A stretch of 64,000 nucleotides of DNA from Candidatus Uhrbacteria bacterium CG10_big_fil_rev_8_21_14_0_10_48_16 (GCA_002793515.1 PFEU01000008.1:6824-70823), one strand, 5' to 3'; numbered from the stretch's first letter, positions 22,730 through 40,336 are shown. Notes: a model not told the origin generated them from the sequence alone. Numbers and translations are program-made.

Positions 22730-25700
22730 TTAAAGGCTCTCATCAACAATTGGATCCGTGGTCACAGAAGTCTCCTCGACAACAGGCGCTTCGTCAACAA
22801 CGGGAACTTCCTCTTCAACGACTGTCTCTTCAACAGACTCATCAATAACGACCGGAGGTTCTTCTACGATTCCCTCCTCTTCCACAGGAGGTTCTTCAAC
22901 ACGAGAAGTTTCCTCGACAACAGGCATCTCTTCTACAACAGGAGCAGGAGCAGATGGACCATTTTCACTCGTTACAGAAATTGATACCCATCCATCATTC
23001 AAATCTGAAACCGTGACTTGCGCATCCTCAACACCCACCGCAATCCAGTTGAACTCAACCTGTGCGCCAGAAGTTGATGATGGACGGTTGAGGGTAAATC
23101 CGGTCTCATCCTCATTGCTGATCCATGCTTCGCGTGCGTCAGCGGAGTTTGATCGTGAGCTAAACGTTACAATTGGCTGGAATTGATAAGGAGTTTCAAA
23201 GGTCACACGGACTTGAGTCTCCTCAGAAGCCATGCGGATTCGGCCTGCCATATCATGCGATCCATAAAGATGTTCTGCAATCGTGACGGAACCCTCAAAT
23301 TGTGCATCGGAAGCCGTAATAGAATCAGCAGAAACCACTTGAACAACCGTATTCGTTCCGCCTTGGAGCGTTGTGCTCTCAGAAATTGGAGAGTACCACA
23401 TGTTATCGACTTTCACCGTAATCTGACCGGTCCCAGCAGAAAAACTCTCCATCGCCATTCCAATAACAGGTCCCGCCGTCGTTGCCTTCATAGCGTACCC
23501 TGGAAGGGTGGCAGAACTAGTCAGGTAATCTCCAATCTGGATGGCTCCATTCTCATCTGAAACATTCACTGGAACTCGTCCGGCAAGAGCGACAAGGGCT
23601 GAGAACGTAGATTCCCCTTCTTCTCCAAGAATCAATCCTGGTTGCGTTGTCACAACTCCCATCAACCCTTTTTGATACGCGGAAGTACTTGATTCCACGT
23701 GCACAGGTGTTCCACTAGCAACGAGAACGTCACCAGACTCTACGTCCTGTGTCGCAGGGAACCACTCAGCAAGGTCGACTCCTGTTTGTACCCCGCTCTC
23801 ATCCATCCAACTCAGAAGTCGAGCTTTATCCGTTGCATTTTTTCCTTCACTCATCCACATGGTCGTATCCCCAATCGCCGTTGTAATATCCGCAGCCCCA
23901 CAATCCAGTTCATCATTTCCCCCATCGGTGTTATCACAATCAAAAACGGTTGCTCCGATATGTTCAATCACCCAAATCTGCCCCATATTATCCCCATCAA
24001 AGGCTGTAACCGTTGCGGCGTCCTGTGTGAAAAATGATCCTGTTGCCACACTTGGCGTTGTATCGGTCCCGAGTGCTTCCTGTGTTCCAATATCGAGAAT
24101 TCCGTCAATTTGTGTATGCCCTGCCGTTGAAACGGAAAAGGCCTGATTGTTTACATTTACGGCAAAATCCCAACCGGTTCCGATACTTACTGCCGTTGCC
24201 ATAATCTGCTCATCTCCTCCGATATTTTTTGTAAGATTTCCAATGTTCAGCCCAAACAAATTGTTCGTGAAGGTTCCGGCCCCATCAGCCGACAACGTCG
24301 CGGTGAACGGATCGATGGCCATCACATTCCAGACATCATTTGCATTTCCATCCGCATTATTATCCGTAAACTGTGGTGAAATACGGAAGATATTTGTCGT
24401 CACGTTGTCCCCCACATCAATATCAAGAACCAATCCCTCAACGTTATCCATAGCAATTTCCTGTGTCTGGTTTGTGATAGACAAAAGGTCTGTGTTAGGA
24501 GCTTGAATTCCATGATTAATGCTCATTGTATCTTCTAGATAGATTCCTTGATCCCAACCGGTTCCCTGAATATATAATCCGTATTCATTTCCATCACGAG
24601 GAACTCCTATTAATGGATCAACTGAGATCGCATAGAGATTGTCATCATTTGCTTCATTGGCTGAATTCTGAAACACAGCAACTTGTAATGCTTTATGCGT
24701 TTCCGTCACGTTTCCTGCTCCCCCTGCGGTGAGTTCAAAATTAATGGATGCTCCAACGACGTTTCCACCTGGGGCGTTATTCACATCCACGTCCATATCC
24801 AAGCTTCCCGTTGTCTTTGTTGAATCTGTTGTGGCCGCATCTATCGTAAGAGCGTCCGTTGCTCCTAACGTTGTTGTTAAACCACCGCCAGCAAGTGTTA
24901 CAAGATTTGAAGAATGCGTCAGGGTAATATCACCATTATTAAAATTGATGACGCCACCGTTTGCGAGGAATAGATCTGACCATTGGTTTGATGTCCCTCC
25001 AAGGGCACTTCCATCGTTTGCGGCTGGTTGTAATGCCGTCCCTGTAAGGAGAATTTCCATTCCACCTGCAATGGCAATCTCAAGAGTTCCATCAACATTG
25101 ATGTCGTAATCCCAACCATTCCCGATATACAATGCGGATGTTGTTGCTGTTCCTGCACCAGCCTCAGTCATGGACCCAACATGAACTCCCGTATAGGTAC
25201 TTGATCCAGCAGAGACATCATATGTCATGTCTGAAAGAGAGATCATACGATTTACATCACTCCCATCTGAATTCCACGTTCCATCCCCTCCATCGATTTC
25301 AAGGGAAACTCCGCTTGCATTATTGTGATCAAGCGAAATCGCCATACCACCAGCACCCGGAGTTGCAGACACATCTCCTGATCCTAAGCTGAAAAGTGTT
25401 GCCGTAGGCGATCCATCACCATCAACATTCATCGTGGCGCCATCAACAACCCCAACGTTAAAGTCTCCTGCGGTATTTGTTGTTGATGTAGCATTTCCAA
25501 CCGTAATTGTCCGTCCTCCACCCGTACCAATATTAATCGCTTGAGGATCGTTATCATTCCCAATATTGATGACGTTTGTTGAGTTAATAGATAGAGCCTG
25601 ACCTGAGTCAATATCCAACGTATTTCCCGAATTTAATGTCATGGCTGAATCTGCCGTAGACAAGGTAAGCGTTCCGCTGGTTCCAGAGGTTGAAAGTGCG

Positions 25701-28700
25701 TTAATCGCAATCGCTCCTCCTGTTCCGCCAGCGTTTGAAGTGTCTGTCGAGAGCGTAATGCCACCAGACGTATCAGCTCCTGAAGAAGTTGTATTGATCG
25801 TAACGTTTCCTGCAGCTCCTGCCGTGTCAATATCAATTCCGCCTGTTCCTGCATCTACATCGATTCCCCCAGCCGCATTTGTAGCATTCATTCGAATAGC
25901 GTCAGCTGTGGCCTCCCCTGAACTAAGGACTAACGAATTAGCCGTTGCAGAAAGTGTAAGATCTCCCGTTGCTGCCGTCACGTTTGAAGCACCGGTTCCA
26001 TCAATGGAGAAGGCTCCCGCTGAAAGGACGTCAAAAGTTGTTCCTGCATCAAAATCAATCCCCGCAACAGAGCTTCCAATAAGGTCACCGGAAGTCAGTG
26101 TTGAAAGTGTGAGGTTTCCTGAAGTTGTGGTGACGTTTGAAGCACCGGTTCCGTCAATAGAGAAGGTGCTTGTCGCTAGCATGTCGTATGTTCCCGTCAC
26201 GTCAATGTCAAGGTTGGCACCAGCGTTTATATCAACAAGCGCGATACCATCAAGAATAAGGCTTCCTGACGTTGCTGTTGAAAGTGTGAGGTTTCCTGAA
26301 GTTGCACTCACATTTGAAGCACCAGTTCCATCAATGGAGAAAGCTCCCGTAGTCAAGATATCGACTCCGCCTGTTCCTGCATCCACATCGATTCCCCCAG
26401 CCGCATCTGAAGCATTCATTCGAATGGCGTCAGCCGTGGCCTCTGTGCTTGTAAGATTAATACTTGAACCAGTCGCTGTAATATCAATATCTTCTCCAGC
26501 TGACGCGCCACTCGCAGAAATATCAATTCCTCCAGCCGTTGAAGTTACGGTAAAGGCATCTGCTCCATCAGCGGTTGATTCAAGATCTAAATCGCTTGCT
26601 GTTTCGAGACGAATGGTTGAAGCATCTTGTCCATAATCAAACGTCAATGAAAGTGCATTCTCTGTAAGCGTCAATTCATTATTTGTGGCGTTCGACATGG
26701 TCAAATCATTTTGAAAATCGATGTCATAATCCCATGAAGCTGTATTCTCGATATCGATCGCTGTATCTGTTCCCCCTGCCGTTGAAGCAAGATCGAGCAA
26801 CAGACCAATTCCAATATCTGTCCCCGCCGTTCCCCCTGAAGTTAACACTCCATGAATAATGGCATTTGTTGGATTCGTTCCGTCTCCGGTAGAAAATGCC
26901 AGTGACAATGCATCCACTCCATCTGTTATCGTAGCTCCCGCTGAACTAATCGATACGAGATCCCCTGTGAGAATCCCTGTCCCTGCAATATCAATTGCCT
27001 GACCAGATGTTGAGGCTGTTGCAATGTTAATAGCATCCCCCGCAACGTTCGTTCCCATGTTGAGATCAATCGCATTGCCTGTGTGAGCGGCTGTCGCATA
27101 GGTGATATCCAAGAAATTTCCTGTTGAAATTCCTGCACCAAAATCAGCATCAATCGCTGGAGCCGTCCATGCTCCAGAAGTATCAATATCCATGAGCCAC
27201 CCAGATGTATCAGATTCATCTGCGTTCGCAATAACGAATACCTGACCATCATTATTCGTCGTGGCCTCCAGATTCACGTTAAAAATGTCTCCTGCATGAT
27301 TCCCCGTTCCCGTATCTATATCAAAAATGTTTCCTGTCCAAGCGGAATCCGTTGACGAATCAAACTGAACCATGGATGACGTAAACGCTCCAGAAGCATC
27401 TGTATTGATCAACCAACCTGGTTGATCAGACTCATCATTGTTATTAACAACGAGAACCTGTCCATCGTTATTTGTTGTTCCTTCAAGTTGAATGTTAAAG
27501 ATGTCTCCCGAGTGATTTCCTGTTCCTGTCTCCACATGGAAAATATCACCTGTCCAAGCAGCATTCCCCGTATCATCATATCTCCAAATATTTCCCGTCC
27601 AAGCTCCAGACGTGCTGGTCTCCCAAAGATCCCCACTAAAGGTTGAGCTATTTGAAAGAAGGAATGCATTTCCTGTCGTTAACCCATCAATAGAATAATC
27701 AATCCCATTCGCCGTTGTCAGAGAATCAAACGTGATATCCATGACATCGTTTGTGGTTTCTGTTGAAACAAAATTGAACAGATCCGCTCCCGTTCCAAAA
27801 TTCATGATATCCGCCCCTGTTCCCTCTCCAACATTGATGGTTCGATCAAAATCAGAGTCCCCAATCGTAATGGAACGACTTGAAGTCGTTGTATCCAAAC
27901 TCACGTCTCCACTGGCAGCGCTCAACGTTGCTGCTCCTGATCCACCCGCGTTCAGTGAGATGGCTCCATCAACGGTTGAAATCGCAACGGTTCCTGTTGA
28001 ACCAACGTTTACATCAAGACCGGCAGACCCAGGACCAGCGGCTCCATACGTATTAATCTGCATATAGGAACCTGCATCCATGATGATGGTTCCTGCGGTA
28101 TTTGTTGTGACATCATAAGCATCTAAATAGATCCCCGAAGCCGTGGCTCCGTCTGCATCCAAGTAAATCGCATCATTTGACGTATCAAGTGATTGAAGAA
28201 TCACACTTGAAGCCGTACCGCCAGCCGACGTTGAAAGCGTAAGAGCTCCCACGGACGTACTGAAATTTGAAGCGGCATCCGCGTCCAATGAAATGGCTCC
28301 TGTTCCGTCCACGTCAAACGCTTGTGCGTCTGTAAACTGAGCCCATGTTGAACCTGCATCCTGAATCACGAAGTCTCCTGTACTTTGCAAGTCAATAATT
28401 ACGTTGTCTGCAACCGATGATTCAATTTCAAAACCTCCTGTTTGGCTTTCCGCAGCATCTACCGTGATTTTAGCAGCCGTTGCTCCAAAGTTATTGTAAG
28501 CATTATCAAGATTCGAAGAGAGCCCCAACCAACTTGTTCCGTTGTACCACTTCAAATCATTGCTATCCGTGTCGTAATACATACGACCGGTAAAAGCCAC
28601 ACTTGGATCCGCCGAAGAATTTTCAATCGCCTGGGTAAAAATAGAGTACGGAGTCTTTGTCACACGAACGCGTGGCGCAAGTGTTTCAGCTCCCCCCACA

Positions 28701-29104
28701 CTGTTTGCTGTATGAACCTTCATCTCGAACCACACATTGTTCGCAAAATCAGCAACATCTGAGCCAACAGGAATTTCAAGGGTGAAGAATCCATTCGTGA
28801 CAGTTACCGCCTCCTCTCCAGAGTCCACAACCCCATCCCCATCCGCATCTGCAAACCCCTGAATGTTTGATGCAAGATTCGTTCCACCGGTTAATGCTGA
28901 TTCGATATCAAACCAGAAGTAGTACGTCCCCGAAAGGGCTGTACCTGATGCATCAAAAAGTCTTCCGTTGTAACCAATGGTCGCTGGCGCTCCAACCGTT
29001 TGGGCATTGGCTGAGAGTGGCACAGCGAGAATTCCGATGGAAAGAGTGTAAAAGACCATCGAGATCCCCACAAACGTGTGCAGGAATAATTTGGCGGTTC
29101 GCAT
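22730..29104 (-). CDS. Giant secreted repetitive surface protein (2124 aa), Thr/Ala/Gly/Ser/Asp-rich with nested tandem repeats and an acidic Pro/Val/Glu-rich C-terminal tail
   Basis: Single uninterrupted minus-strand ORF. Signal peptide MRTAKLFLHTFVGISMVFYTLSIGILAVPLSANAQ. Repeats such as SAWTGNIFDIDTGTGNHAGDIFN…NNDGQV (x2) and AFSIDGTGASNV…GNLTLST (x3). C-terminal (V/P/E)-rich low-complexity region VEEMPVVEETSRVEEPPVEEEGIVEEPP…. No enzymatic motif. Confidence 0.8.
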   Translation of the reverse strand: MRTAKLFLHTFVGISMVFYTLSIGILAVPLSANAQTVGAPATIGYNGRLFDASGTALSGTYYFWFDIESALTGGTNLASNIQGFADADGDGVVDSGEEAVTVTNGFFTLEIPVGSDVADFANNVWFEMKVHTANSVGGAETLAPRVRVTKTPYSIFTQAIENSSADPSVAFTGRMYYDTDSNDLKWYNGTSWLGLSSNLDNAYNNFGATAAKITVDAAESQTGGFEIESSVADNVIIDLQSTGDFVIQDAGSTWAQFTDAQAFDVDGTGAISLDADAASNFSTSVGALTLSTSAGGTASSVILQSLDTSNDAIYLDADGATASGIYLDAYDVTTNTAGTIIMDAGSYMQINTYGAAGPGSAGLDVNVGSTGTVAISTVDGAISLNAGGSGAATLSAASGDVSLDTTTSSRSITIGDSDFDRTINVGEGTGADIMNFGTGADLFNFVSTETTNDVMDITFDSLTTANGIDYSIDGLTTGNAFLLSNSSTFSGDLWETSTSGAWTGNIWRYDDTGNAAWTGDIFHVETGTGNHSGDIFNIQLEGTTNNDGQVLVVNNNDESDQPGWLINTDASGAFTSSMVQFDSSTDSAWTGNIFDIDTGTGNHAGDIFNVNLEATTNNDGQVFVIANADESDTSGWLMDIDTSGAWTAPAIDADFGAGISTGNFLDITYATAAHTGNAIDLNMGTNVAGDAINIATASTSGQAIDIAGTGILTGDLVSISSAGATITDGVDALSLAFSTGDGTNPTNAIIHGVLTSGGTAGTDIGIGLLLDLASTAGGTDTAIDIENTASWDYDIDFQNDLTMSNATNNELTLTENALSLTFDYGQDASTIRLETASDLDLESTADGADAFTVTSTAGGIDISASGASAGEDIDITATGSSINLTSTEATADAIRMNASDAAGGIDVDAGTGGVDILTTGAFSIDGTGASNVSATSGNLTLSTATSGSLILDGIALVDINAGANLDIDVTGTYDMLATSTFSIDGTGASNVTTTSGNLTLSTLTSGDLIGSSVAGIDFDAGTTFDVLSAGAFSIDGTGASNVTAATGDLTLSATANSLVLSSGEATADAIRMNATNAAGGIDVDAGTGGIDIDTAGAAGNVTINTTSSGADTSGGITLSTDTSNAGGTGGAIAINALSTSGTSGTLTLSTADSAMTLNSGNTLDIDSGQALSINSTNVINIGNDNDPQAINIGTGGGRTITVGNATSTTNTAGDFNVGVVDGATMNVDGDGSPTATLFSLGSGDVSATPGAGGMAISLDHNNASGVSLEIDGGDGTWNSDGSDVNRMISLSDMTYDVSAGSSTYTGVHVGSMTEAGAGTATTSALYIGNGWDYDINVDGTLEIAIAGGMEILLTGTALQPAANDGSALGGTSNQWSDLFLANGGVINFNNGDITLTHSSNLVTLAGGGLTTTLGATDALTIDAATTDSTKTTGSLDMDVDVNNAPGGNVVGASINFELTAGGAGNVTETHKALQVAVFQNSANEANDDNLYAISVDPLIGVPRDGNEYGLYIQGTGWDQGIYLEDTMSINHGIQAPNTDLLSITNQTQEIAMDNVEGLVLDIDVGDNVTTNIFRISPQFTDNNADGNANDVWNVMAIDPFTATLSADGAGTFTNNLFGLNIGNLTKNIGGDEQIMATAVSIGTGWDFAVNVNNQAFSVSTAGHTQIDGILDIGTQEALGTDTTPSVATGSFFTQDAATVTAFDGDNMGQIWVIEHIGATVFDCDNTDGGNDELDCGAADITTAIGDTTMWMSEGKNATDKARLLSWMDESGVQTGVDLAEWFPATQDVESGDVLVASGTPVHVESSTSAYQKGLMGVVTTQPGLILGEEGESTFSALVALAGRVPVNVSDENGAIQIGDYLTSSATLPGYAMKATTAGPVIGMAMESFSAGTGQITVKVDNMWYSPISESTTLQGGTNTVVQVVSADSITASDAQFEGSVTIAEHLYGSHDMAGRIRMASEETQVRVTFETPYQFQPIVTFSSRSNSADAREAWISNEDETGFTLNRPSSTSGAQVEFNWIAVGVEDAQVTVSDLNDGWVSISVTSENGPSAPAPVVEEMPVVEETSRVEEPPVEEEGIVEEPPVVIDESVEETVVEEEVPVVDEAPVVEETSVTTDPIVDESL
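25840..26450. repeat. Nested in-frame tandem DNA repeats inside the giant gene (units of about 150 nt and about 530 nt)
   Basis: The antisense frame (ORF 25641..26636) repeats TFEAPVPSMEKAP three times about 50 codons apart, and PPVPASTSIPPAA(F/S)…FIR(I/M)ASAVAS twice about 176 codons apart. The sense protein repeats AFSIDGTGASNV and ATADAIRMNA…AAGGIDVDAGTGG with the same spacing. Confidence 0.55.
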
Positions 29105-29266: not shown

Positions 29267-30508
29267 TTATTTTTTACGTGCTTGTACGTAGTAGATTATA
29301 GCAAATAAAACAACGAGTCCCAAGAGAACCGGGATAACTGGAATTGATTCCCACAAAAAATTTCCATCCATGTCGATTTCCTCTTGTGCTCTTTCACGAA
29401 TAGCACCCACTTCACCATCCTCTTCTAAGCCTTCTGGTCGGTTCAAGTCCGTGCCTTCAGGATACACACGCACAGAAGTACTTCCATACACCGTATTTCC
29501 AGCTCGATCTAATGCAGCCACACGAAAAAAGTACGTCCCAACAGGAAGATCCTCTATCTCGAGCGGACTTATTTGTGTTTGAAACTCACTGTCATTAATA
29601 GCGACCTGATATTCAGCAACCCCTGACAACTCATCTGTCGTTCCAAACACAAACCACGCAGATTCTCCCTCGAGAAGTTTTGTTTGTTGTGCTGTCAGCG
29701 TAATAGGATTTGGAGAAGTTCGGTCAATCTGCACAACATAATTCACCTGCTCCGTTTCACGACCGTCTTCTTGAAGCCCTTTAAGATGAAAGTAATAAAT
29801 ACCATCTTGTTCCGCAATCACTGATAGATCCGTCGTTTCTGCTGGGAGTGAAATATCTGCTTCTGCCGTTGGATTATTATCAAAACGATAAAAATACTCA
29901 CGAATAGGACTCTCTCCTTCAAGATCCTTCCAAGAAAAAAGAGCAACATCTAACGAAGACCATGCTTGCTGATCTGGATGTGTACTACTTTCAACAACTA
30001 ATACAGCCGTTCCTAGATCTGCTTCCTCGGACACGGAAACAAAAACAGAAGCTTCTGCGAGAACACTCACGTCTATCCGCTCTTCTCCCGCAGAGATCGC
30101 ATGCGAATCGCCAGAAATCGCGACACGCCCCTCCCCTGCTTCAAGAGCAAGAAACGTAATAACCATCACAGATTCTTCTGTTGAAACAGCCTCTCCTAGC
30201 GTAAATGCTCCCCAAGAAATCTTTCCGTTAACATTATCGCGGTAATTTCCTGGAGCTGTCCTATCAAACGAACCACTCAGCCTCACGTTTTGTGCTTGCA
30301 TGACGGTTGGATCGAAGGTAACGACCGCACGAACGGTATCAAGAAGCTCTCCTTGCGGATCCACATGCACCGTAACCTCAAAAAACTCACCGCTCACAAC
30401 ATTGTAGGCAGACTGATCAAATTGGAATACCGCACTTCCCGAAGCTCGCATAACACTCGGAACCATCAGAGCCACGAAAACGAGCATTCCGAGAAAAAAA
30501 TATCTCAT
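29267..30508 (-). CDS. Secreted surface protein: N-terminal cohesin-like domain, Ig/FN3-like middle domains, C-terminal TM anchor
   Basis: Signal peptide MRYFFLGMLVFVALMVPSVMRASG. Cohesin-like beta-sandwich pattern FQFDQSAYNVVSGEFFEVTVHVDPQGELLDTVRAVVTFDPTVMQAQNV…PGNYRDNVNGKISWGAFTLGEAVSTEESVMVITFLALEAGEGRVAISG. C-terminal hydrophobic anchor IPVIPVLLGLVVLFAIIYYV followed by QARKK. Confidence 0.6.
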   Translation of the reverse strand: MRYFFLGMLVFVALMVPSVMRASGSAVFQFDQSAYNVVSGEFFEVTVHVDPQGELLDTVRAVVTFDPTVMQAQNVRLSGSFDRTAPGNYRDNVNGKISWGAFTLGEAVSTEESVMVITFLALEAGEGRVAISGDSHAISAGEERIDVSVLAEASVFVSVSEEADLGTAVLVVESSTHPDQQAWSSLDVALFSWKDLEGESPIREYFYRFDNNPTAEADISLPAETTDLSVIAEQDGIYYFHLKGLQEDGRETEQVNYVVQIDRTSPNPITLTAQQTKLLEGESAWFVFGTTDELSGVAEYQVAINDSEFQTQISPLEIEDLPVGTYFFRVAALDRAGNTVYGSTSVRVYPEGTDLNRPEGLEEDGEVGAIRERAQEEIDMDGNFLWESIPVIPVLLGLVVLFAIIYYVQARKK

Positions 30509-30526
30509 AGAGTTTCTAAGTCCCTT

Positions 30527-31426
30527 CTAGACTTCAACACCCCAACGCGCAATCATCATTGAAAAATCATAATCATCCACCGTCGAGTCTTCATTAAAAT
30601 CTCCTTCTCGATCATTCTCTCCCCACATCCCAATAAAACGACTGAGATCATAATCGTTTACTGTTTCATCATTATTCACGTCTCCGATCAATCGGCGATA
30701 AATCTCATACACGATTGAGGCGGAGCTTGCTGATCCATCTAACCCAACGACCGTAAAACTATTCTCTCCATACGACAGGGACACATAATCTTGCCAAGAC
30801 GTAGTGGTTGGATACGTAACTGATTCTGAACTTCCATCCACCGTCACAAGGTCGACATCTTCATCCTTGGTTCCATACAAGAGAAACGTTTGCGTATAGG
30901 TAAACACAAGATCTTCAATTGCACTTGAAACAGACGGTGACTCAGGTGCAACGGTTCCTCCACCACCGCCACCCCCGCCTCCACCGCCTCCTCCACCACC
31001 ACCAGAAGGAGCTGTTCCAGAACAAGAGCTTGTGACAAGGGCACAAGCAGAACTACAGGTAAGTGTCCCTGTTTCAAATCCCTGGGTCACGCAGGTCTTA
31101 CTATCAAGGTTTAAGCCATCACATGTTTCTCCGGGATCCACGAATCCATCACCACAATAATACTGAAATCCACTTCCTATTTCTTCTTCGTAACTTGTAC
31201 TTGTGATACTTCCTGCATAAGGATCAATCGCTCCTTGCAACTGATAACTTGTTGATTCAAGCATGTCAGAAGCATTTGTATACCCATCCGTTGCTGGAGC
31301 AAGAAAACCGGCTTCAGGAGTAATCTGATAACTTGATGAAGAAACGGCCCCCACCCCTAACGGAAAAACAGCCAAGGCAAGGGCAAAAAATAGAATAGGT
31401 GCGTTCGTATGTTTCATATCACTCAT
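30527..31426 (-). CDS. Secreted protein with a Cys-rich module, a 16-residue poly-Gly linker and a C-terminal type-I dockerin module
   Basis: Signal peptide. CGDGFVDPGETCDGLNLDSKTCVTQGFETGTLTCSSACALVTSSC; a 16-residue poly-Gly run. C-terminal duplicated Ca-binding dockerin segments DVNNDETVNDYDLSRFI and GDFNEDSTVDDYDFSMMI, both matching D-x-N-x-D-x-x-x-[ND]-x-x-D followed by a helix. Confidence 0.7.
   Translation of the reverse strand: MSDMKHTNAPILFFALALAVFPLGVGAVSSSSYQITPEAGFLAPATDGYTNASDMLESTSYQLQGAIDPYAGSITSTSYEEEIGSGFQYYCGDGFVDPGETCDGLNLDSKTCVTQGFETGTLTCSSACALVTSSCSGTAPSGGGGGGGGGGGGGGGGTVAPESPSVSSAIEDLVFTYTQTFLLYGTKDEDVDLVTVDGSSESVTYPTTTSWQDYVSLSYGENSFTVVGLDGSASSASIVYEIYRRLIGDVNNDETVNDYDLSRFIGMWGENDREGDFNEDSTVDDYDFSMMIARWGVEV
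30958..31008 (-). repeat. (GGN)n simple repeat encoding the poly-Gly linker
   Basis: Plus strand reads ccaccaccgccacccccgcctccaccgcctcctccaccaccacc, which encodes G16 on the minus strand. Confidence 0.7.
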
Positions 31427-31464
31427 GGACCAAATTCAAACGGAAACAATGATTTAGCCAAAAC

Positions 31465-32472
31465 TTATACCGAAAGCGGATCGTGTCCCGTTGAGACCTC
31501 TTCTCCATCAAGATATCCATCTCCATCGGTATCCGCATTCTCAGGATCTGTTCCATAGGTTTCTTCTTCTGTGTCTGTAAGACCGTCCGCATCTGTATCA
31601 ACCTCTTCCTCTGTTTCTACAACCTCTTCATCACCAAGATCATCCTCTCCATACGCCTGCTCATCCCACGTTAAAAGATCCGTATACGCAATCGTATGAA
31701 GCACATTCCATTCCATATCAGTGTCTGGCATCTTTGCGTATTTCTGACCGAACAGAATTAACGCATGTTCTTCTGCAGAAAGATCCCGTGGGGATCCTTG
31801 GCAACCACCGTAGGCAATACAATGAAGCGCCTCCCAGTCATTTGCGCTTGATGGCATGCGTGCATAAAACGCCCCAAAATAGACCAATGCTTGTGCTTCG
31901 AGTTCTGCATCCTTTTCATAATCAGAAGTCTCTTCCTCAACCACCTCTTCGCTTGCCTCCTCTGCATCTATATCAAAAGACGTACTATCAATTTTTTCCT
32001 CTCCATCGGAGATGAGTTTTGAATTGCTTGAAATCGCAAGATCAATCTCTTGGTCCGTAAGAGCTTCGAATGTAACCGTTGCGATGACACTTGTCTGCGT
32101 AACAGGATCGCCGTACTTGTAGGCTCCAAACGTCAACACACCTGTCGTGTTATCGATCTCGTACTCTGGAGAAAGACTTGGAAAAGATGAATCTAGATCA
32201 AACCATGTCGCTTCTAGTAAGGAAGCGTCATAGACGATTTCTACTCGCACGGTATCAATCGATTCTCCGTTGGGAGCCACGATCACATCAGCCGTCACCA
32301 TCTCCCCTGCTAAAACAGTCATCTCTGACACAGAAAGGGAAAGCATCGCAGAACCTTCTGCAGACGCAACATGCACACCAACTTGCGAAAGCAAGAAGGC
32401 GAAAATGAATAGAGGGAAAACAACCTTTCTCATAGAGTGTATGGGGAAACGCATGTTTAAAAATCGGACCAT
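31465..32472 (-). CDS. Secreted protein: N-terminal cohesin-like domain, duplicated W/Y-rich repeat, C-terminal thrombospondin-type-3-like Ca-binding Asp repeats
   Basis: Signal peptide (…VFPLFIFAFLLSQVGVHVASA). Cohesin-like LSLSVSEMTVLAGEMVTADVIVAPNGESIDTVRVEIVYDASLLEATWFDL…VIATVTFEALTDQEIDLAISS. Repeats ALVYFGAFYARMPSSANDWEALHCIAYGG / ALILFGQKYAKMPDTDMEWNVLHTIAYTD. C-terminus DTDADGLTDTEEETYGTDPENADTDGDGYLDGEEVSTGHDPL. Confidence 0.6.
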   Translation of the reverse strand: MVRFLNMRFPIHSMRKVVFPLFIFAFLLSQVGVHVASAEGSAMLSLSVSEMTVLAGEMVTADVIVAPNGESIDTVRVEIVYDASLLEATWFDLDSSFPSLSPEYEIDNTTGVLTFGAYKYGDPVTQTSVIATVTFEALTDQEIDLAISSNSKLISDGEEKIDSTSFDIDAEEASEEVVEEETSDYEKDAELEAQALVYFGAFYARMPSSANDWEALHCIAYGGCQGSPRDLSAEEHALILFGQKYAKMPDTDMEWNVLHTIAYTDLLTWDEQAYGEDDLGDEEVVETEEEVDTDADGLTDTEEETYGTDPENADTDGDGYLDGEEVSTGHDPLSV

Positions 32473-32566
32473 GCCTCATTTATTAAAAGTATAACATACG
32501 AAAACATATTTCAAAACAAAAAAGTCACGATTCAAGCGACTTTTATACACACGTCTTTTCCCTTCG

Positions 32567-33874
32567 TTAAGACTCTCCCCGAAGAAAGAAGTGTGTCGTT
32601 TTTAACAGAATCAAAATATCAAAAAGAAAAGATCTATTCTTAATATAGTACAAATCATATTCAAACTTCATTTGAGAATCGACAACCGATCGTGCATACC
32701 GAAACTTAATCTGCGCCCACCCGGTAATTCCCGGCTTAATAAAATGGCGCACATGGTAGTACGGAATCTCCGCCTCTAATAAATCAACAAATACCGGACG
32801 TTCTGGTCGAGGGCCTACCAGACTGAGATCTCCTCGAAGGACATTTAACAACTGTGGAAGCTCGTCAAGATGCGTCTTGCGCAATATCCGCCCAACCGCT
32901 GTCACACGCGCATCTTGCTTCGTCGCCCAGGCAGGTCCGTTTGACTCTGCATCAACCCACATGGTTCGAAACTTGATAATCGAAAACAGTTTTCCATTCT
33001 TTCCCATGCGTTCTTGCGTATAAAAAACGGAGCCTCCATCGGAAAACTTAATGGCCGTCACAAGAACGAGCCATAGAGGAGCTGTTAACCCAAGGAGGAA
33101 TAACGAAACACTCACATCAAAAAACCGCTTCACGTGTTGATATAAACTCGCATCCTTCTCTTGAATATTTCGTAAAAACCATCGATGATCGACGGTCGAG
33201 AGCGGAATACGTTTTGCAAAGAGTTCATACGCTTGTGCGGTATCAAGAAAGATCACCCCTTTTCCAAGACAGGCATAAACCTGCTGAGCTCCAACGGGAT
33301 CGGATAAATTCACAGAAGGGAGAACAACCATGTTTAGCTTCTGTTCTTGAATATGAAAGGAAAGATGCTCGGCAGATCGCAACGGCACACACACATGTCC
33401 CAAATGCGTGCGATCACGAATCATCGACTGAAGTTCGTCTACCTCTTTATGACTCCCCACAACACCTATGACCAACGGAGCGATACGAGCCATGTTCGAA
33501 AAAAACACCCGTCTCCAAATCAAACTCAATATCCCAAACACAAGGACATGAAACAACAGAATCACTTTCGGAGAAATGCTTGAAAAAGAAATCGTATAAA
33601 AATAAAGGACCCCTACTAAAAAAGCTACGACAAGGGCAACGGAAAATTGACTCACTCGCTTGAGAGAAACGCGAGAAGATAATTCGTAGGCATCAAACAC
33701 ATAAAAAATCACAAACCAAATCAGGTACAAAAACGTGAATGCGGGAAGGTGTTGATAGACCACTCCCTCATCAAAATTCTCCCCAAAACGAACCATCAAG
33801 ACAAGGAACAATGAAACGTACATCAAAATCACGTCTCCGCTTAAAAGGATCAGTTTTTGCCCTCTAAAATCCAT
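32567..33874 (-). CDS. Polyprenyl-phosphate hexose-1-phosphate transferase (bacterial sugar transferase, WbaP/WcaJ-like initiating PGT)
   Basis: 435 aa, 4-5 N-terminal TM helices. C-terminal catalytic domain PLWLVLVTAIKFSDGGSVFYTQERMGKNGKLFSIIKFRTM…DELPQLLNVLRGDLSLVGPRPERP is the Bac_transf signature. Confidence 0.85.
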   Translation of the reverse strand: MDFRGQKLILLSGDVILMYVSLFLVLMVRFGENFDEGVVYQHLPAFTFLYLIWFVIFYVFDAYELSSRVSLKRVSQFSVALVVAFLVGVLYFYTISFSSISPKVILLFHVLVFGILSLIWRRVFFSNMARIAPLVIGVVGSHKEVDELQSMIRDRTHLGHVCVPLRSAEHLSFHIQEQKLNMVVLPSVNLSDPVGAQQVYACLGKGVIFLDTAQAYELFAKRIPLSTVDHRWFLRNIQEKDASLYQHVKRFFDVSVSLFLLGLTAPLWLVLVTAIKFSDGGSVFYTQERMGKNGKLFSIIKFRTMWVDAESNGPAWATKQDARVTAVGRILRKTHLDELPQLLNVLRGDLSLVGPRPERPVFVDLLEAEIPYYHVRHFIKPGITGWAQIKFRYARSVVDSQMKFEYDLYYIKNRSFLFDILILLKTTHFFLRGES

Positions 33875-33923
33875 ATGGGCTTATTGTGTGCTATTTTCAG
33901 ATACGTGTAAAATACACCCATCT

Positions 33924-34886
33924 ATGACCTCACAAACCATTCTCATCACGGGAGGTGCCGGTTTTATTGGCTCACACCTCGCCAAACGGCTTATTGAAGA
34001 GGGTCATGAGGTTATTATTATTGATAACTTCAATCCCTATTACGATCCTTCTTTAAAGGAGGCTCGTATCTCTCACCTCCTGAAAGATCTTCCTTACACC
34101 TTGTATCGGATCGACCTCGAGGACTTTGAGGCGGTTCAAAAGGTATTTGAAACACACGCCATTGATTTGATTGCCCACCAAGCCGCACAAGCAGGTGTTC
34201 GATATTCGATCGAAAATCCGCTTGTCTATGGACAAAGTAATCTCATAGGAACACTCAACCTCCTGGAGCTTGCAAAGCAATACCATATAAAAGGATTCAT
34301 CCTTGCGTCGAGCTCGTCTGTATACGGAGACGCAACCTCCTTTCCCATCAAAGAAACTGACGAAACAGACAAGCCGATTTCGTTATACGCAGCGACAAAA
34401 AAATCCTGCGAACTTCTTGCCTACTCCTATCACCATCTCTTTGAACTCCCTGTGACATGTCTACGGTACTTCACGGTCTACGGACCTTGGGGACGGCCAG
34501 ACATGGCGATCTTTTCTTTTACCAAATCCGCTTTTGAAGGAACACCGATCGATGTGTATGGCCAAGGAGACATGGCGAGAGACTTCACCTTCATCGACGA
34601 TCTCGTCGATGGCATCGTAAAAGCTCTTGAAAAACAACTCCCATGGGCCGTCCTAAATCTTGGCCGTGGCCAAGCCCAACCACTCATGGACTTTATTACA
34701 TCCATCGAAACGCATTCTGGAAAATCCCTTCAAAAAAACTTTTTAGACATGCAACCTGGTGATGTCCAAAAAACCTGGGCGGATATCACTCAAGCGAAAA
34801 CCCTTCTTTCATTTGAACCCAAGACTTCCATCGATGAGGGAGTTCAATCCTTTGTGACGTGGTACAAAAATTTCTATGACGTCTAA
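33924..34886 (+). CDS. NAD-dependent nucleotide-sugar epimerase (UDP-glucuronate 4-epimerase / CapI-like SDR)
   Basis: ILITGGAGFIGSHLAKRLIEEGHEVIIIDNFNPYYDPSLKEARI, a YxxxK catalytic region (YAATKKSCE), and the overall extended-SDR layout. The ORF-track start at 33888 is GTG and has been trimmed to the ATG at 33924. Confidence 0.8.
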   Translation: MTSQTILITGGAGFIGSHLAKRLIEEGHEVIIIDNFNPYYDPSLKEARISHLLKDLPYTLYRIDLEDFEAVQKVFETHAIDLIAHQAAQAGVRYSIENPLVYGQSNLIGTLNLLELAKQYHIKGFILASSSSVYGDATSFPIKETDETDKPISLYAATKKSCELLAYSYHHLFELPVTCLRYFTVYGPWGRPDMAIFSFTKSAFEGTPIDVYGQGDMARDFTFIDDLVDGIVKALEKQLPWAVLNLGRGQAQPLMDFITSIETHSGKSLQKNFLDMQPGDVQKTWADITQAKTLLSFEPKTSIDEGVQSFVTWYKNFYDV

Positions 34887-36000
34887 AAAGACAACGCGCA
34901 TCGCGGTCTTTTTTACCCATGGAGTCTCCTTAGAATTATGGGAACAGCGTGGAATGTTCTCACGAGAAGTGACCTTCTATGAAGAGCTCGCACGTGAGCT
35001 GGGAGAAGTGTGTTTCTTTACCTATGGTCGTAACGACGCACGGTTTGCTTCCAAACTTGGAACTCAAATTCGCCTCTTTCCAAAACGTCTCCCGGTCCCA
35101 AATCTCCTCTACGCCGTTCTTCTCCCCTTTCTCTACTGGAGGGAACTCTCACAGGTTCAAGCGCTTCGCATACACCAACTCGCCGGAGCGATCCCGGCAG
35201 TCATCACCCATTGGCTCATGTGCAAACCCCTGATTGTACGAGGAGGTTTTCAATGGCTCACCTTTGCTCGCAAACAAGGAGCCTCAAAACTCAAACAACG
35301 ATGTATTTCAATCATCGAACGTCTATCCTATCGGTCTGCAAACGTGATTATTCACACGACACAAGCGGATGCAACATTCGTTCAGAACCGATATGGCATT
35401 CACCCAGAAAAGATCCAGGTGATCCCAAACTATGTCGACACAGAGCTATTCAAACCAATGAACACACAAAAACACCCACAGAGTCTCTGTTATGTAGGAA
35501 GATTCGAAGAACAAAAAAATCTATTCAATCTCTTGGGCGCGATGGAAGGAAGCCAGATTCATCTTGTGCTCTACGGGGACGGATCTCTCAAATCTGAACT
35601 TGAGCATCGGGCAAAACAGTTAAACATCCATGCAAGTTTCATGGGGAGGATCGCAAATGAGGAACTTCCTTATGCCCTCAATACCTGTGAGGCATTTATC
35701 CTTCCTTCGTGGTACGAAGGAAATCCAAAAGTTCTTCTCGAAGCGATGTCCTGCGGGCTTCCCTGTATCGGCACCAACGTGGAAGGTATTGCGAGTTTGA
35801 TCAAAGATGGAGAAACCGGTCTCTTGTGCGACCCATCAAGTCCATCCATCGCACAGGCCATCCATACCCTCTTTGCCGATCAAGACTTCCGAAACCGACT
35901 GGGGTATACCGCACGTACACACATCCTTAAGAGTGTCTCTCTCACACAAGTCATTCAACGTGAATGCCCTTTCTACGATTCTCAACATGAACGCGTATGA
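34876..36000 (+). CDS. Glycosyltransferase family 4 (GT-B, retaining)
   Basis: C-terminal E-x7-E region PSWYEGNPKVLLEAMSCGLPCIGTNVEGIASLIKDGETGLL. ATG overlaps the upstream stop by 11 nt. Confidence 0.8.
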   Translation: MTSKKTTRIAVFFTHGVSLELWEQRGMFSREVTFYEELARELGEVCFFTYGRNDARFASKLGTQIRLFPKRLPVPNLLYAVLLPFLYWRELSQVQALRIHQLAGAIPAVITHWLMCKPLIVRGGFQWLTFARKQGASKLKQRCISIIERLSYRSANVIIHTTQADATFVQNRYGIHPEKIQVIPNYVDTELFKPMNTQKHPQSLCYVGRFEEQKNLFNLLGAMEGSQIHLVLYGDGSLKSELEHRAKQLNIHASFMGRIANEELPYALNTCEAFILPSWYEGNPKVLLEAMSCGLPCIGTNVEGIASLIKDGETGLLCDPSSPSIAQAIHTLFADQDFRNRLGYTARTHILKSVSLTQVIQRECPFYDSQHERV

Positions 36001-36629
36001 GCAAGCTTCTCCTCACCTTCGCCCTAACCCTCCACAGCTTTTCGTATAAACTCGCAAGTCGTCTTGCGATCTTTGCGGAAAACGGCTTGCATCCCAAACA
36101 TCGACTGATGAACTACCACCAGTTTTTTCTCGATCATATTCAGCCAGAAGATCGTGTCCTTGATATTGGATGTGGAAACGGCGCCCTAGCGTTTGATCTT
36201 GCGAAAAAAGCCACGCATGTGACCGGAATCGATCATAACGAAAAAAATCGTTCCACGTGGGAAGAGCGATTCGCTCGCAACAATCTCACCTATCTCGTTG
36301 CAGACGCAACAACATTCTCTCCAATAGAACCCTTCACCGTCATCGTGCTTTCCAATGTCCTTGAGCACATCGAACACCGATCCTCTTTTTTGAAATCCAT
36401 TACCCACCTTGCTCCCCTCTTTCTGATTCGTCTTCCTATGCTCAACCGTGACTGGATGACTCTCTACAAAAAAGAATTAGGACTCGAATACAGACTCGAC
36501 ACGACGCACTTTACCGAGTACACCCTAGAGACGTTTTCACAGGAAATGGCTGAAGCAGGACTCTCTATTCAATCTCTCTCCATTCAATTCGGTGAAATCT
36601 GGGCGGTCATACAATCCCCTCACACGTAG
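35997..36629 (+). CDS. Class I SAM-dependent methyltransferase
   Basis: VLDIGCGNGALAFDLAKKATHVTGIDHNE (motif I) and VIVLSNVLEHIE (motif II/III). The ATGA start overlaps the upstream stop. Confidence 0.7.
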   Translation: MSKLLLTFALTLHSFSYKLASRLAIFAENGLHPKHRLMNYHQFFLDHIQPEDRVLDIGCGNGALAFDLAKKATHVTGIDHNEKNRSTWEERFARNNLTYLVADATTFSPIEPFTVIVLSNVLEHIEHRSSFLKSITHLAPLFLIRLPMLNRDWMTLYKKELGLEYRLDTTHFTEYTLETFSQEMAEAGLSIQSLSIQFGEIWAVIQSPHT

Positions 36630-36632
36630 ATT

Positions 36633-37712
36633 ATGTTTGACTCCGTCAAAACAATGGTTCGAACCCTCGTAAAACGTTTCTTTAGTATTCCTAATCTTTG
36701 GAATAAGAACCACATCCATATTGTGACGGATGGCCATGATTGGGTCATTGGCGAAGTCTCAAAATTTCTTTCAACCGCCCTCTCTCAAAGAACCCTTGCA
36801 CAAGCCTCCATCAGTCCATTCTTCTACTTTCTCTCTGGAAAGGTCATCCATTTCAATTCCATCCCCGTCCCCCAACGTTTTCCAAAAAATAAGGTCATCA
36901 TGACGTGGTACCACATTCCAGAACACGACCCTCGGCTCTCAACACTAAGGGAACTTGAAGCACGTGTGGATCTCATTCATACATCAACACACTCCACAAA
37001 ACAGACCCTCGTTCAGCATGGATTCCCTCCAGAAAAAATTCTTGTGATCCCACAAGGAATTAACCTCACGCTATTCACTCCTGTATCGAAGGACCAGAAG
37101 AAAGAGATTCGAACGGCCCTAGGCATTCCTGAAAAGGCCTTCGTGATTGGTTCGTTTCAAAAAGATGGAGATGGTTGGGGGGAAGGGATGAACCCAAAGC
37201 TCATTAAAGGACCTGACGTGTTTTGTGATGTTGTTGAACAGCTCGCAAAAAAAATAGCGGTTCATGTGCTCTTAAGTGGCCCTTCTCGAGGATACGTCAA
37301 GGATCGACTGACGCGCGCCAACATTCCATTCACACACCAGTATCCAAAAGCATACAAAGACGTAAATCAGCTCTATCACGCCCTTGATGTCTATCTCATC
37401 TCTTCTCGCATAGAAGGAGTGCCGATGGCCCTGCTTGAATCGTGGGCAACAGGCATTCCGCTTGTCAGTACGCGTGTAGGAATGGTTCAAGACGTTGCCA
37501 AGCACGAATCAAACGCTCTTCTTGCGGATGTGGAGGATCGCGATAGGCTTGTTGGGCACATAGAAACCCTCTTTCACGATCATCATGTGAGAGACCATCT
37601 TGCACGCAATGGTCTTGAGTCCGTAAAAGCGTATGATTGGAGTGTCTTAATTGATAGATATTGGAAAGAACTCTACCAACCACTTCTTCGCAAGCCTTCC
37701 GTAAAGCACTAA
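36633..37712 (+). CDS. Glycosyltransferase family 4
   Basis: SSRIEGVPMALLESWATGIPLVSTRVGMVQDVAKHESNALLADVEDRDRL is the GT4 E-x7-E motif region. Confidence 0.75.
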   Translation: MFDSVKTMVRTLVKRFFSIPNLWNKNHIHIVTDGHDWVIGEVSKFLSTALSQRTLAQASISPFFYFLSGKVIHFNSIPVPQRFPKNKVIMTWYHIPEHDPRLSTLRELEARVDLIHTSTHSTKQTLVQHGFPPEKILVIPQGINLTLFTPVSKDQKKEIRTALGIPEKAFVIGSFQKDGDGWGEGMNPKLIKGPDVFCDVVEQLAKKIAVHVLLSGPSRGYVKDRLTRANIPFTHQYPKAYKDVNQLYHALDVYLISSRIEGVPMALLESWATGIPLVSTRVGMVQDVAKHESNALLADVEDRDRLVGHIETLFHDHHVRDHLARNGLESVKAYDWSVLIDRYWKELYQPLLRKPSVKH

Positions 37713-37732
37713 CGTTTCCGCATGTTGCGCAT

Positions 37733-38782
37733 ATGAAAATAGCGATTGGAATGCACCTTCAAACAGGGTCGTTCGGAGGAGGAAATCAGTTTGCAACTCT
37801 TCTCACAGACCATCTTCGAAAACTCGGGCATGAGGTCTATTTCGATCTGACCCCATCTGATCTGGATCTTATTCTTATGACCGACCCTCGCACCACGTTG
37901 AAGTCGGTTGCCTTTGGTCCTGTTGAAATCATGCGGTACATTCGGGACGTGCATCCTTCTACTCTACTTGTGCATCGCATAAACGAATGTGATGAACGCA
38001 AAGGAACCCGTGCTCTTAATCGCATCCTTGCTGTCAGCAATGAGATCATGGATCACACGGTTTTTATTTCTTCGTGGCTTGAAAAGCTCCACTGCCAACA
38101 ACATCCGTTTACAACATCCCGCTCTGTTATTTACAACGGAGCAGATCCTTCCGTTTTTACCTATCAAAAAAAGGAACTTCCAACCACAAGAAAAATAAAG
38201 CTTGTCACGCACCACTGGAGTGCAAACTGGAATAAAGGATGGGATGTTTACATGCATCTTGATCATCTCCTTTCAGAAACATCTCTCGGAGATCAGATAG
38301 AATTTACCTACATTGGAAACGCTCCAAAACTCCCTTTCAAAAAGATTCGTGTGGTTCCTCCACGCGCTGGAAAAGAACTCGCCCAAGCCCTACAAGAACA
38401 CGATCTCTATATCACCGCATCGTTGAATGAGCCCGCAGGTATGCATCACATTGAAGCTGCATCTTGCGGACTTCCACTTCTGTATCGCACCAGCGGTGCC
38501 CTTCCGGAATATGGCGCATCATTTGGTGTGGCCTTTCACGGACCAGACGATGTTGAGGCGCGACTGCATGAACTCCTTCACACGTACGACCGATTCACAC
38601 ACGCCCTTGAATCTTACCCCTACACAAGTGAATTGATGTGTCGCTCGTATACAGAATTGTTTCACTCACTCATCTCACGCAAAGAATCGATCCTTGCAGA
38701 ACGCAAGACAAACCACTTTTCTCTCGCTCGACAAATCAAGAAACACCTCCATCTCATCTGGCTTTCTTTATTGAATCGATAA
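37733..38782 (+). CDS. Glycosyltransferase (GT-B fold, GT4-like)
   Basis: MKIAIGMHLQTGSFGGGNQFATLLTDHL and …ASLNEPAGMHHIEAASCGLPLLYRTSGALPEYG. The ORF-track start at 37661 is TTG; the ATG is at 37733. Confidence 0.6.
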   Translation: MKIAIGMHLQTGSFGGGNQFATLLTDHLRKLGHEVYFDLTPSDLDLILMTDPRTTLKSVAFGPVEIMRYIRDVHPSTLLVHRINECDERKGTRALNRILAVSNEIMDHTVFISSWLEKLHCQQHPFTTSRSVIYNGADPSVFTYQKKELPTTRKIKLVTHHWSANWNKGWDVYMHLDHLLSETSLGDQIEFTYIGNAPKLPFKKIRVVPPRAGKELAQALQEHDLYITASLNEPAGMHHIEAASCGLPLLYRTSGALPEYGASFGVAFHGPDDVEARLHELLHTYDRFTHALESYPYTSELMCRSYTELFHSLISRKESILAERKTNHFSLARQIKKHLHLIWLSLLNR

Positions 38783-38794
38783 GCTCCTCCCCTT

Positions 38795-39439
38795 ATGGAT
38801 CACATGCAACCGTCACAATATTTTTCCATGAAATATCTCTCGCTTCAGCGATGGAACTCTTATTGGTATCAATTATTTGAGACAACCCAGTGTCCGAATG
38901 TCAAAACCATTCTTGAGGTAGGGATTGGGAATACCATCTGCACGTCCGTTCTTCGAAATATGGGCTACACCGTCAAGACCCTAGATGCAGACCCAACAAC
39001 TCAGGCGGATTACGTAGCAGACATCCGAACAATTCAACAGACCGTTCATGAAACATTCGATCTCACCCTCTGTTGTCAAACACTCGAACATATTCCGTAC
39101 GAAGACGTCCCGGGTGTTCTCCGATCTTTTCACAAGATCACAAATACCTGGCTCATTGTCACCCTTCCCTACACTTCACTCGGCACATTTGCTCCACGCC
39201 TATTTCTCAAGCTCCTCCCGTTCATGAAACCCTTCAAATGGGTCCGCGTCTTTCCTTTTTTTCCAAAAGAACATCCATCGAAACTCCCTGGAGGGCATTA
39301 CTGGGAAATCGGAAAAAAAGGATATGCTCTCAAGACGATTCTTCAGCTATTCGACACGTGCGGATGGGATATCGTGAAGCACTACTCGCTCTTTGAGAAT
39401 CCTTACCACTACATGCTCGTGTGTAAAAAACGAACATAG
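38795..39439 (+). CDS. Class I SAM-dependent methyltransferase
   Basis: ILEVGIGNTICTSVLRNMGYTVKTLDADP is a glycine-rich SAM loop. 214 aa. Confidence 0.6.
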   Translation: MDHMQPSQYFSMKYLSLQRWNSYWYQLFETTQCPNVKTILEVGIGNTICTSVLRNMGYTVKTLDADPTTQADYVADIRTIQQTVHETFDLTLCCQTLEHIPYEDVPGVLRSFHKITNTWLIVTLPYTSLGTFAPRLFLKLLPFMKPFKWVRVFPFFPKEHPSKLPGGHYWEIGKKGYALKTILQLFDTCGWDIVKHYSLFENPYHYMLVCKKRT

Positions 39440-39467
39440 ACAAACAGACTCACAAAAGTTCTTGTAT

Positions 39468-40335: not shown

Positions 40336-40336
40336 T

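Follow-up and report, generated by a model that had tools for sequence, protein, structure and literature searches.

Three consecutive genes on the minus strand of a 64,000-nucleotide stretch of DNA from Candidatus Uhrbacteria (the whole stretch analysed, hereafter the window) encode proteins with complementary docking modules, and on balance they probably constitute a non-cellulosomal cohesin-dockerin docking set on the cell envelope, in which the product of the third gene would be the receptor for that of the second and which would serve a surface-fibre or adhesion apparatus. The source lineage is uncultivated, comes from groundwater and belongs to the Candidate Phyla Radiation (CPR, or Patescibacteria). 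The three genes, named A, B and C, code respectively for a secreted cohesin protein, a secreted dockerin protein and a membrane-anchored cohesin protein, and they are referred to together as the trio; their conserved downstream neighbours are named D, E and F, and the order is A-B-C-D-E-F. When the window was searched with family profile hidden Markov models (HMMs), exactly one dockerin, that of B, and two cohesins, those of A and C, were found, and the orthologous loci, searched over 10 kb on either side, likewise held one dockerin and two cohesins each.

Cohesin and dockerin modules of the trio

The trio had been pointed out by an earlier sequence-only reading, which described two cohesin proteins, a protein ending in a duplicated dockerin, the secretion of all three and the absence of any attached glycoside hydrolase. 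The three open reading frames (ORFs) were found where that reading had placed them on the minus strand, and scans with Pfam and NCBIfam matched no catalytic family in A, B or C, glycoside hydrolases included. Each of the three products starts with a single hydrophobic, signal-peptide-like segment by hydropathy, modelled in C as a signal helix, in agreement with secretion. The curated (gathering) cut-offs of Pfam used throughout were 24.1 bits for Cohesin (PF00963), 22.9 bits for Dockerin_1 (PF00404) and 25 bits for TSP3_bac (PF18884). Since the scores of the window proteins were modest, the robustness of the assignments was tested on families of orthologues, drawn from 79 species-level genome loci and then scanned singly against Pfam, with domains counted at E ≤ 0.01. 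Cohesin was detected in 30 of the 34 A orthologues (best E 2.8e-11) and in 25 of the 39 C orthologues, and Dockerin_1 in 26 of the 30 B orthologues; this recurrence in most orthologues indicates that the matches did not arise by chance. Moreover, single-protein models were generated with AlphaFold2 for B (from an alignment of 30 sequences) and for C (38 sequences), with confidence expressed as the predicted local distance difference test (pLDDT). We regard the cohesin and dockerin identities of A, B and C as genuine with very little doubt. The sequence-only reading had proposed profile-HMM searches as its own check and had named non-significant matches with unrelated folds, or Asp-rich segments lacking a helix pair, as grounds for giving it up; the searches placed both Cohesin and Dockerin_1 above their cut-offs, and the helix pair seen in the model of B removes the last of these grounds.

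The dockerin of B was matched by Dockerin_1 with 27.8 bits over residues 248-293. The profile of the B family also matched about 20 solved dockerins, the best being the non-cellulosomal one of Clostridium perfringens NagJ (2jnk/2ozn, E 8e-5), with others including 4fl4, 1daq, 2mte and 2y3n and, weakly, 2b59_B. The two loops quoted in the sequence-only reading, DVNNDETVNDYD and DFNEDSTVDDYD, correspond to residues 249-260 and 276-287 of B; they read D-V-N-N-D-E-T-V-N-D-Y-D and D-F-N-E-D-S-T-V-D-D-Y-D, with Asp or Asn at positions 1, 3, 5, 9 and 12. Across the B family there is little or no variation at these calcium-ligand positions or at the Asp-Tyr pair (positions 10-11 of each loop), and the two repeats are near-symmetric, with 12 of 21 residues identical. 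In the AlphaFold2 model, residues 160-299 have a pLDDT of about 95 and each loop is followed by a helix (258-267 and 285-293, pLDDT 92-96). The linker between the repeats falls about seven residues short of that in the Pfam profile, of which 53 positions are aligned to 46 residues of B. Directly before the dockerin lies an immunoglobulin (Ig)-like module, with strands modelled at residues 180-244 (pLDDT about 95), for which Foldseek retrieved the Fn3-like modules of CbhA (3pdd/3pe9) and domain B of glucodextranase, and Pfam gave a weak match to Glucodextran_B. B is a secreted, non-enzymatic protein with a C-terminal Ig-like module and a canonical duplicated dockerin.

The remainder of B is organized differently. 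Residues 28-88, modelled at a pLDDT below 50, carry three S-[ST]-S-Y-[QE] motifs that are kept in the family alignment, and this motif is absent from every other ORF of more than 100 residues in the window. They are followed by a single Cys-rich repeat, with weak matches to DUF4215 and myxo_disulf_rpt, whose six cysteines (C91, C102, C112, C124, C128 and C135) are invariant in the family. The B family comprises more than 100 members of about 290 residues, with identities down to about 33%, and those members that are named by source belong nearly all to Candidatus Uhrbacteria or Patescibacteria. Matches to B from Myxococcota and archaea were considered as relatives of the system and rejected, because they have no more in common with B than the signal peptide and the CGDG Cys-rich repeat.

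The cohesin of C scored 25.7 bits over residues 39-142. Among PDB sequences, the profile of the C family matched only an FN3-like domain (residues 262-356) and no cohesins, so the assignment needed a fold search. In the AlphaFold2 model (mean pLDDT 88.6), residues 26-158 are all-beta at a pLDDT above 90, and the best PDB match retrieved by Foldseek was 2w1n, the cohesin-FN3 pair of C. perfringens GH84C (E 4e-11); the cohesin CaCohA2 (6kgc_A/6kgd_A) was matched with template modelling scores of 0.70-0.71, that of 6kgc_A being 0.71 over 152 columns. The predicted fold of C therefore matches those of solved cohesins. The cohesin is followed by a stalk of two Ig/FN3-like beta-sandwiches, modelled at residues 169-261 and 270-349, with profile matches to a chitinase FN3-like domain (6bt9) and to ChiA1 (1k85), and the C orthologues gave fn3, Big_13 and K319L-like_PKD matches. 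A linker helix in the model joins the stalk to the C-terminal transmembrane helix, which, as the sequence-only reading had claimed, anchors C together with a basic tail; the helix is supported by a hydropathy segment at residues 382-412 and a modelled helix at 391-412, and the protein ends in ARKK. An LPXTG-like motif is absent from C of the window, and a loose form of the pattern was found in 3 of 78 orthologue tails. Since no such motif is conserved, C is taken as a type-I membrane protein and not as a sortase substrate, and the designation of its orthologue P0172 as a sortase substrate by one source was rejected on the same ground.

The cohesin of A scored 32.0 bits, and the profile of the A family gave weak matches to the scaffoldin cohesins 3l8q, 5g5d and 1g1k among PDB sequences. 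The cohesins of A and C are paralogous, with 34% identity over 149 residues (E 5e-22), and from this identity we infer a cohesin fold for A. The residues conserved in both cohesins lie around strand 3 (D-T-x-R), strands 5-6 and strands 8-9. The C-terminal TSP3 repeats that had been ascribed to A were confirmed by TSP3_bac at 41.2 bits, in two stretches, and this tail is specific to the present lineage, being found in 4 of the 34 orthologues. Between the cohesin and the tail, A carries paired repeats of about 38 residues, described as helical, which match no Pfam family and occur in extra copies in longer orthologues. The coordinates given for A by the sequence-only reading hold for the ORF and probably not for its start, since 32472 is the start of the longest ORF and the orthologue consensus is M14, at 32433 (322 residues), public gene calls having 322 or 329 residues; M14 is likely to be the real start.

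A conserved six-gene envelope locus

The trio had been presented as a minimum set for surface anchoring, and its three modules are present as described; it does not stand alone, forming the first half of a six-gene envelope locus. The block A-B-C-D-E-F was found in about 40 Uhrbacteria species. Among the species-level loci whose contigs extend far enough, C comes immediately after B in 39 of 41 and D after C in 33 of 36, and A precedes B in 33 of 42 (35 after the correction of two ORF-start artefacts). A is missing in about one locus in six, B being retained (L009, L038, L039, L044, L053 and L054), with C still placed after B except in L038. Since A is missing from some loci while B persists, B and C form the core pair. 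The genes are tightly spaced: B and C lie in one reading frame, positions 30509..30529 holding the stop codon of B and 18 nt, and the gap between A and B is 38 nt; such A-B-C spacing is typical of the orthologous loci. Independent metagenome contigs with identical proteins repeat the order of sugar transferase, A, B, C, the 2124-residue protein, the 160-residue protein and the protein with tetratricopeptide repeats (TPR), and F is found downstream of E wherever the contig extends that far. Distant Uhrbacteria also keep A-B-C-D-E-F, with differing flanks that carry DsbA-like, FtsEX or polysaccharide-export genes.

Two distant loci, L089 (6628..11947) and L090 (6565..10007), with GC contents of 0.36 and 0.44, were found through weak C relatives (22-27% identity). 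In these loci a dockerin protein is directly followed by cohesin proteins, one to three in number, in which the cohesin is N-terminal; several of them carry a C-terminal transmembrane helix and basic tail or have a coiled-coil end. This independent recurrence is the strongest indication available of a joint function of the dockerin and the cohesins. L089 also encodes a protein of more than 3000 residues upstream of the dockerin and cohesin genes.

D appears to be a tail-fibre-like surface protein. D has a high content of Thr, Gly, Ala, Ser and Asp, and its tail (residues 2050-2124) is rich in Pro, Glu and Val. D did not reach any Pfam threshold, and searches of Pfam, NCBIfam and PDB with its three thirds (N-terminal, middle and C-terminal) yielded nothing significant. 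A stretch of D, residues 1770-1905, aligns with 46% identity (E 2e-27) to P0224, another Uhrbacteria protein, and the aligned part of P0224 matches Peptidase_G2 IMC (PF11962) at 37.1 bits (cut-off 25), with coverage limited to profile positions 46-100. A resemblance of the 'DLAEWF...' region of D to Peptidase_G2 is thus borne out only transitively, via P0224. The designation of D as tail-fibre-like draws on this link together with weak matches to tail fibres in PHROG and a weak H_lectin/WIAG-tail match at residues 1958-2024. E is a conserved protein without a match in Pfam, NCBIfam or PDB, and the same holds for the N-terminal membrane half of F. The products of all six genes belong to the envelope, given the N-terminal hydrophobic segment on each of A to D, the transmembrane anchors of C and E and the at least ten hydrophobic segments of F. 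The coordinates of the genes and of their modules are collected in Table 1.

Table 1. Genes and modules of the six-gene locus and the adjacent hairpin (window coordinates; residues are those of the encoded protein)
Feature	Coordinates	Strand	Residues or size	Description
Gene A	31465..32472	-	335 aa (longest ORF)	Pfam Cohesin and TSP3_bac
A, cohesin module	31990..32337	-	46-161	
A, paired repeats	31672..31902	-	191-267, ~38 aa each	FGxxYxxMPxxxxxWxxLHxIAY; conserved in orthologues
A, Asp-rich repeats	31468..31602	-	291-335	TSP3-type, Ca-binding
Gene B	30527..31426	-	299 aa	Secreted dockerin protein
B, N-terminal region	31163..31345	-	28-88	Three S-[ST]-S-Y-[QE] motifs
B, Cys-rich repeat	31022..31156	-	91-135	Single CGDG..E.CD repeat, six invariant Cys
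B, Gly run	30956..31003	-	142-157	16 Gly, after Cys-rich repeat
B, Ig-like module	30692..30934	-	165-245	Beta-sandwich directly before dockerin
B, dockerin module	30536..30688	-	247-297	Two Ca-binding loops, helix after each
Gene C	29267..30508	-	413 aa	Membrane-anchored cohesin protein
C, cohesin module	30029..30439	-	24-160	
C, stalk	29462..30004	-	169-349	Two Ig/FN3-like domains
C, membrane anchor	29270..29347	-		C-terminal transmembrane helix and basic tail (..YYVQARKK)
Gene D	22730..29104	-	2124 aa	Secreted, tail-fibre-like; N-terminal hydrophobic segment
Gene E	22122..22604	-	160 aa	One N-terminal transmembrane helix; conserved
Gene F	19603..22110	-		Polytopic, at least ten hydrophobic segments; C-terminal TPR repeats
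Terminator-like hairpin	32520..32544	-		Between upstream sugar-transferase gene and A; consensus scan

The hairpin upstream of A, just downstream of which a promoter-like stretch (TTGAAA..TATACT) is placed, suggests with low weight that A begins a separate transcription unit. Further terminator-like hairpins were noted 3′ of D and of F, as consensus matches of little weight.

Other observations concern the surroundings of the locus. A DsbA-like thioredoxin gene is located just upstream of the block in locus L007 (7592..8383) and a few genes upstream in L008 (5126..5911), both from distant Uhrbacteria; the six invariant cysteines of B make this neighbour noteworthy, and the window ORFs that were scanned included no counterpart. 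Several loci that carry A-B-C-D with 47-59% identity (L015, L017, L018, L020, L024, L027, L028 and others) are titled 'uncultured Gammaproteobacteria bacterium', and these labels, borne by metagenome-assembled genomes with an Uhrbacteria-type block, are probably wrong. In the window, a polyprenyl glycosylphosphotransferase gene (32567..33874, minus strand) diverges from a glycan-synthesis cluster on the plus strand (about 33888..41600), which includes an epimerase, GT1/GT4 glycosyltransferases, methyltransferases and an ATP-binding cassette (ABC) transporter with Wzt_C; the cluster adjoins the cohesin-dockerin locus in this lineage only and lies outside the conserved block. A 766-residue protein with FG-GAP and Cu-binding_MopE repeats is encoded at 15962..18262 (plus strand) within a GC-rich island (0.62 at 16001-18000 versus about 0.46 elsewhere), and its gene may have been acquired horizontally. 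Finally, a tRNA-Ile gene with anticodon TAT is present at 61861..61937 (minus strand), such a tRNA being an uncommon route to decode AUA in bacteria.

The docking model and its alternatives

From the module composition and the gene order, it is likely that B binds C, A or both. In the mechanism proposed here, the cohesin of C would project from the membrane on its Ig/FN3 stalk, anchored by the C-terminal transmembrane helix. After export by the Sec pathway, the dockerin of B would bind this cohesin in a Ca2+-dependent manner, and B would thereby be tied to the cytoplasmic membrane via C, with its Cys-rich N-terminal part displayed beyond the wall. A would act as a second receptor for the dockerin of B, either soluble or wall-associated, and the near-symmetric repeats, with the Asp-Tyr pair at positions 10-11 in both loops, would suit either binding in two modes or the use of alternative partners. 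The task of the docking pair would be to assemble or anchor a surface-fibre or adhesion apparatus centred on D, with no enzyme to organize. A direct structural role of the pair with D is a tentative proposal, possible and somewhat doubtful, and it is unlikely, on present indications, that the whole block A-B-C-D-E-F builds a host-attachment organelle of Uhrbacteria in which the D fibre would be held on the membrane by the Ca2+-dependent C-B tether, with A as a second tier.

Several observations weigh against the docking model. D carries neither a dockerin nor a cohesin according to the family HMMs, and so only the conserved gene order ties it to the trio. The Cohesin score of C is marginal (25.7 against 24.1 bits), and 14 of the 39 C orthologues miss the domain at E 0.01. 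The N-terminal third of B, which is the part that would be displayed, has no confident predicted structure. There are, besides, two cohesins per dockerin, and the true partner of B could be A, C or both in turn. A comparison of the Asp-Tyr pair of the dockerin with the cohesin motifs for compensatory changes bears on the model in neither direction, the key residues being too conserved and the few variants (L009, L035 and L044) anecdotal.

The uneven ratio of the modules can be accommodated by supposing that A, B and C are true cohesin and dockerin homologues that do not bind one another and are simply co-regulated envelope neighbours of D. The dockerin would then be a Ca-stabilized fold or would bind some other ligand, such as a wall polymer or the host surface, and the cohesins would take other partners. 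To our knowledge, most non-cellulosomal cohesin-like and dockerin-like modules, of which there are many, are without a demonstrated partner, and two cohesins for one dockerin would indeed be odd for a simple pair. Nevertheless, the dockerin gene adjoins the gene for a cohesin protein with a transmembrane helix in about 40 Uhrbacteria species and, in other arrangements, in the two distant loci; the canonical residues of both modules are strongly conserved, and no further dockerin or cohesin is present within the 64 kb. The absence of mutual binding is for these reasons regarded as unlikely, though not negligible.

The same ratio would be explained if the two halves of the B dockerin held A and C simultaneously or in sequence, so that C in the membrane would be cross-linked to a wall-associated or Ca-bound A in a tether of three proteins extending across the envelope. 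The high identity of the two B repeats, each with its Asp-Tyr pair, the presence of two paralogous cohesins flanking a single dockerin in most loci and the same conserved cohesin residues in A and C are all in keeping with such a bridging tether. It is nonetheless improbable, since B persists in the loci from which A is missing and since the solved type I complexes contain one cohesin per dockerin. A type I dockerin binds one cohesin at a time, and its dual binding mode consists of alternative orientations, not of two partners.

The trio is not a cellulosome, since no multi-cohesin scaffoldin, carbohydrate-binding module (CBM) or dockerin-bearing enzyme is found within the window. The idea that the trio is a small enzyme complex of the cellulosome type that degrades polysaccharides might be suggested by the co-occurrence of the two kinds of module and by a weak likeness between the Ig-like module of B and modules of glycoside hydrolases. 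It is close to refuted, as A, B, C and D were matched by none of the families of glycoside hydrolases, lyases, esterases or CBMs, each cohesin protein has one cohesin, so that a scaffoldin is lacking, and there is one dockerin protein in the 64 kb. Equally close to refuted is the reading of the Asp-rich segments of B as generic EF-hand or TSP3-type Ca-binding repeats: the loop sequences alone do resemble EF-hand loops, but Dockerin_1 is the sole Ca-binding family that matches B, above its cut-off, TSP3_bac matching A and not B, and the matches of the family profile to solved dockerins and the confidently predicted helix after each loop point to a dockerin.

Relation to known systems and significance

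By mode of action, the docking set proposed for the trio appears closest to the cell-surface anchoring of cellulosomes and to the GH84 complexes of C. perfringens. The NagH, NagJ and GH84C proteins of the latter (2ozn, 2jnk, 2w1n) are the closest solved relatives of both the B dockerin and the cohesin-FN3 pair of C, and the two systems have in common a single cohesin followed by an FN3 or Ig module, a single dockerin placed after a small module and the lack of a scaffoldin. C. perfringens has no cellulosome, and there the cohesin-dockerin interaction joins two enzymes (PMC3821032). In C. perfringens the modules are borne by secreted enzymes and join two catalytic toxins, whereas the trio has no enzyme partner and is distinguished by its transmembrane-anchored cohesin protein and by its place in a conserved locus that also encodes a giant, fibre-like product. 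The sequence identity between the two systems is also low, at 12-13% in the Foldseek alignments.

Cellulosome anchoring, in which type II cohesins of cell-surface scaffoldins bind the dyad of X-module and dockerin on the primary scaffoldin, as with the X-dockerin of Clostridium thermocellum CipA (2b59), follows the same logic, in which a cell-bound cohesin holds a secreted protein by its C-terminal dockerin, and both the X-dockerin and B have an Ig-like module directly before the dockerin. Anchoring scaffoldins of cellulosomes are attached through S-layer homology (SLH) domains or by sortase. C differs from them in using a transmembrane helix without an LPXTG motif, and the trio differs in having no multi-cohesin scaffoldin, enzymes or CBM.

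Outside cellulosomes, Peer et al. (FEMS Microbiol Lett 291:1, cited in PMC3821032) reportedly compiled in 2009 a catalogue of cohesin-like and dockerin-like modules from bacteria, archaea and eukaryotes, which predates the CPR genomes. The catalogued modules resemble those of the trio in belonging to organisms that do not degrade cellulose and to non-enzymatic proteins, with functions mostly not assigned. Moreover, in the animal TMEM132 family an extracellular cohesin homologue and Ig domains are combined in a single-pass membrane protein, for which a role in adhesion is proposed (PMC6030884). Its likeness to C is one of broad architecture only, by analogy, TMEM132 being eukaryotic and having no known dockerin partner. 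For D, the comparison is with phage tail-spike and neck-appendage proteins that carry Peptidase_G2 (PF11962), which D resembles through P0224, the weak PHROG matches and its repetitive Thr-, Gly- and Asp-rich composition. D differs from them in lying below the Pfam thresholds, with about 55 of 228 profile positions covered in P0224 and no PDB sequence match, and in that its gene belongs to a conserved locus on the chromosome of the cell, with nothing nearby to suggest a prophage.

The domains themselves are not new, since automated annotation already labels some orthologues as 'cohesin domain-containing protein' or 'dockerin type I domain-containing protein', and their presence would not surprise a specialist. 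In the searchable literature, no paper was found that joins cohesin or dockerin with Uhrbacteria or Parcubacteria, nor was a description of the six-gene locus; the matches for Patescibacteria or CPR together with cohesin or dockerin concern rumen or Omnitrophota systems. What appears to be new here is the lineage-wide six-gene context.

The CPR bacteria account for a large share of bacterial diversity. Most of them are uncultivated, a life in attachment to other cells is assumed for them, and little is known of the machinery by which they attach. The locus described here is a conserved, compact and experimentally tractable candidate for the study of this attachment biology, with two small cohesin modules and one dockerin amenable to expression, beside the gene of a giant fibre-like protein. 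Should B not bind the cohesins, the locus would be a further well-documented case of orphan non-cellulosomal modules. If the proposed binding is true, the cohesin-dockerin interaction, known from enzyme complexes, would gain a use in the envelope architecture of a deep-branching lineage, and a new orthogonal cohesin-dockerin pair would become available for protein engineering. Were the block also to build the host-attachment organelle considered above, it would represent the first case of cohesin-dockerin docking that mounts an adhesion fibre in ultra-small episymbiotic CPR bacteria.

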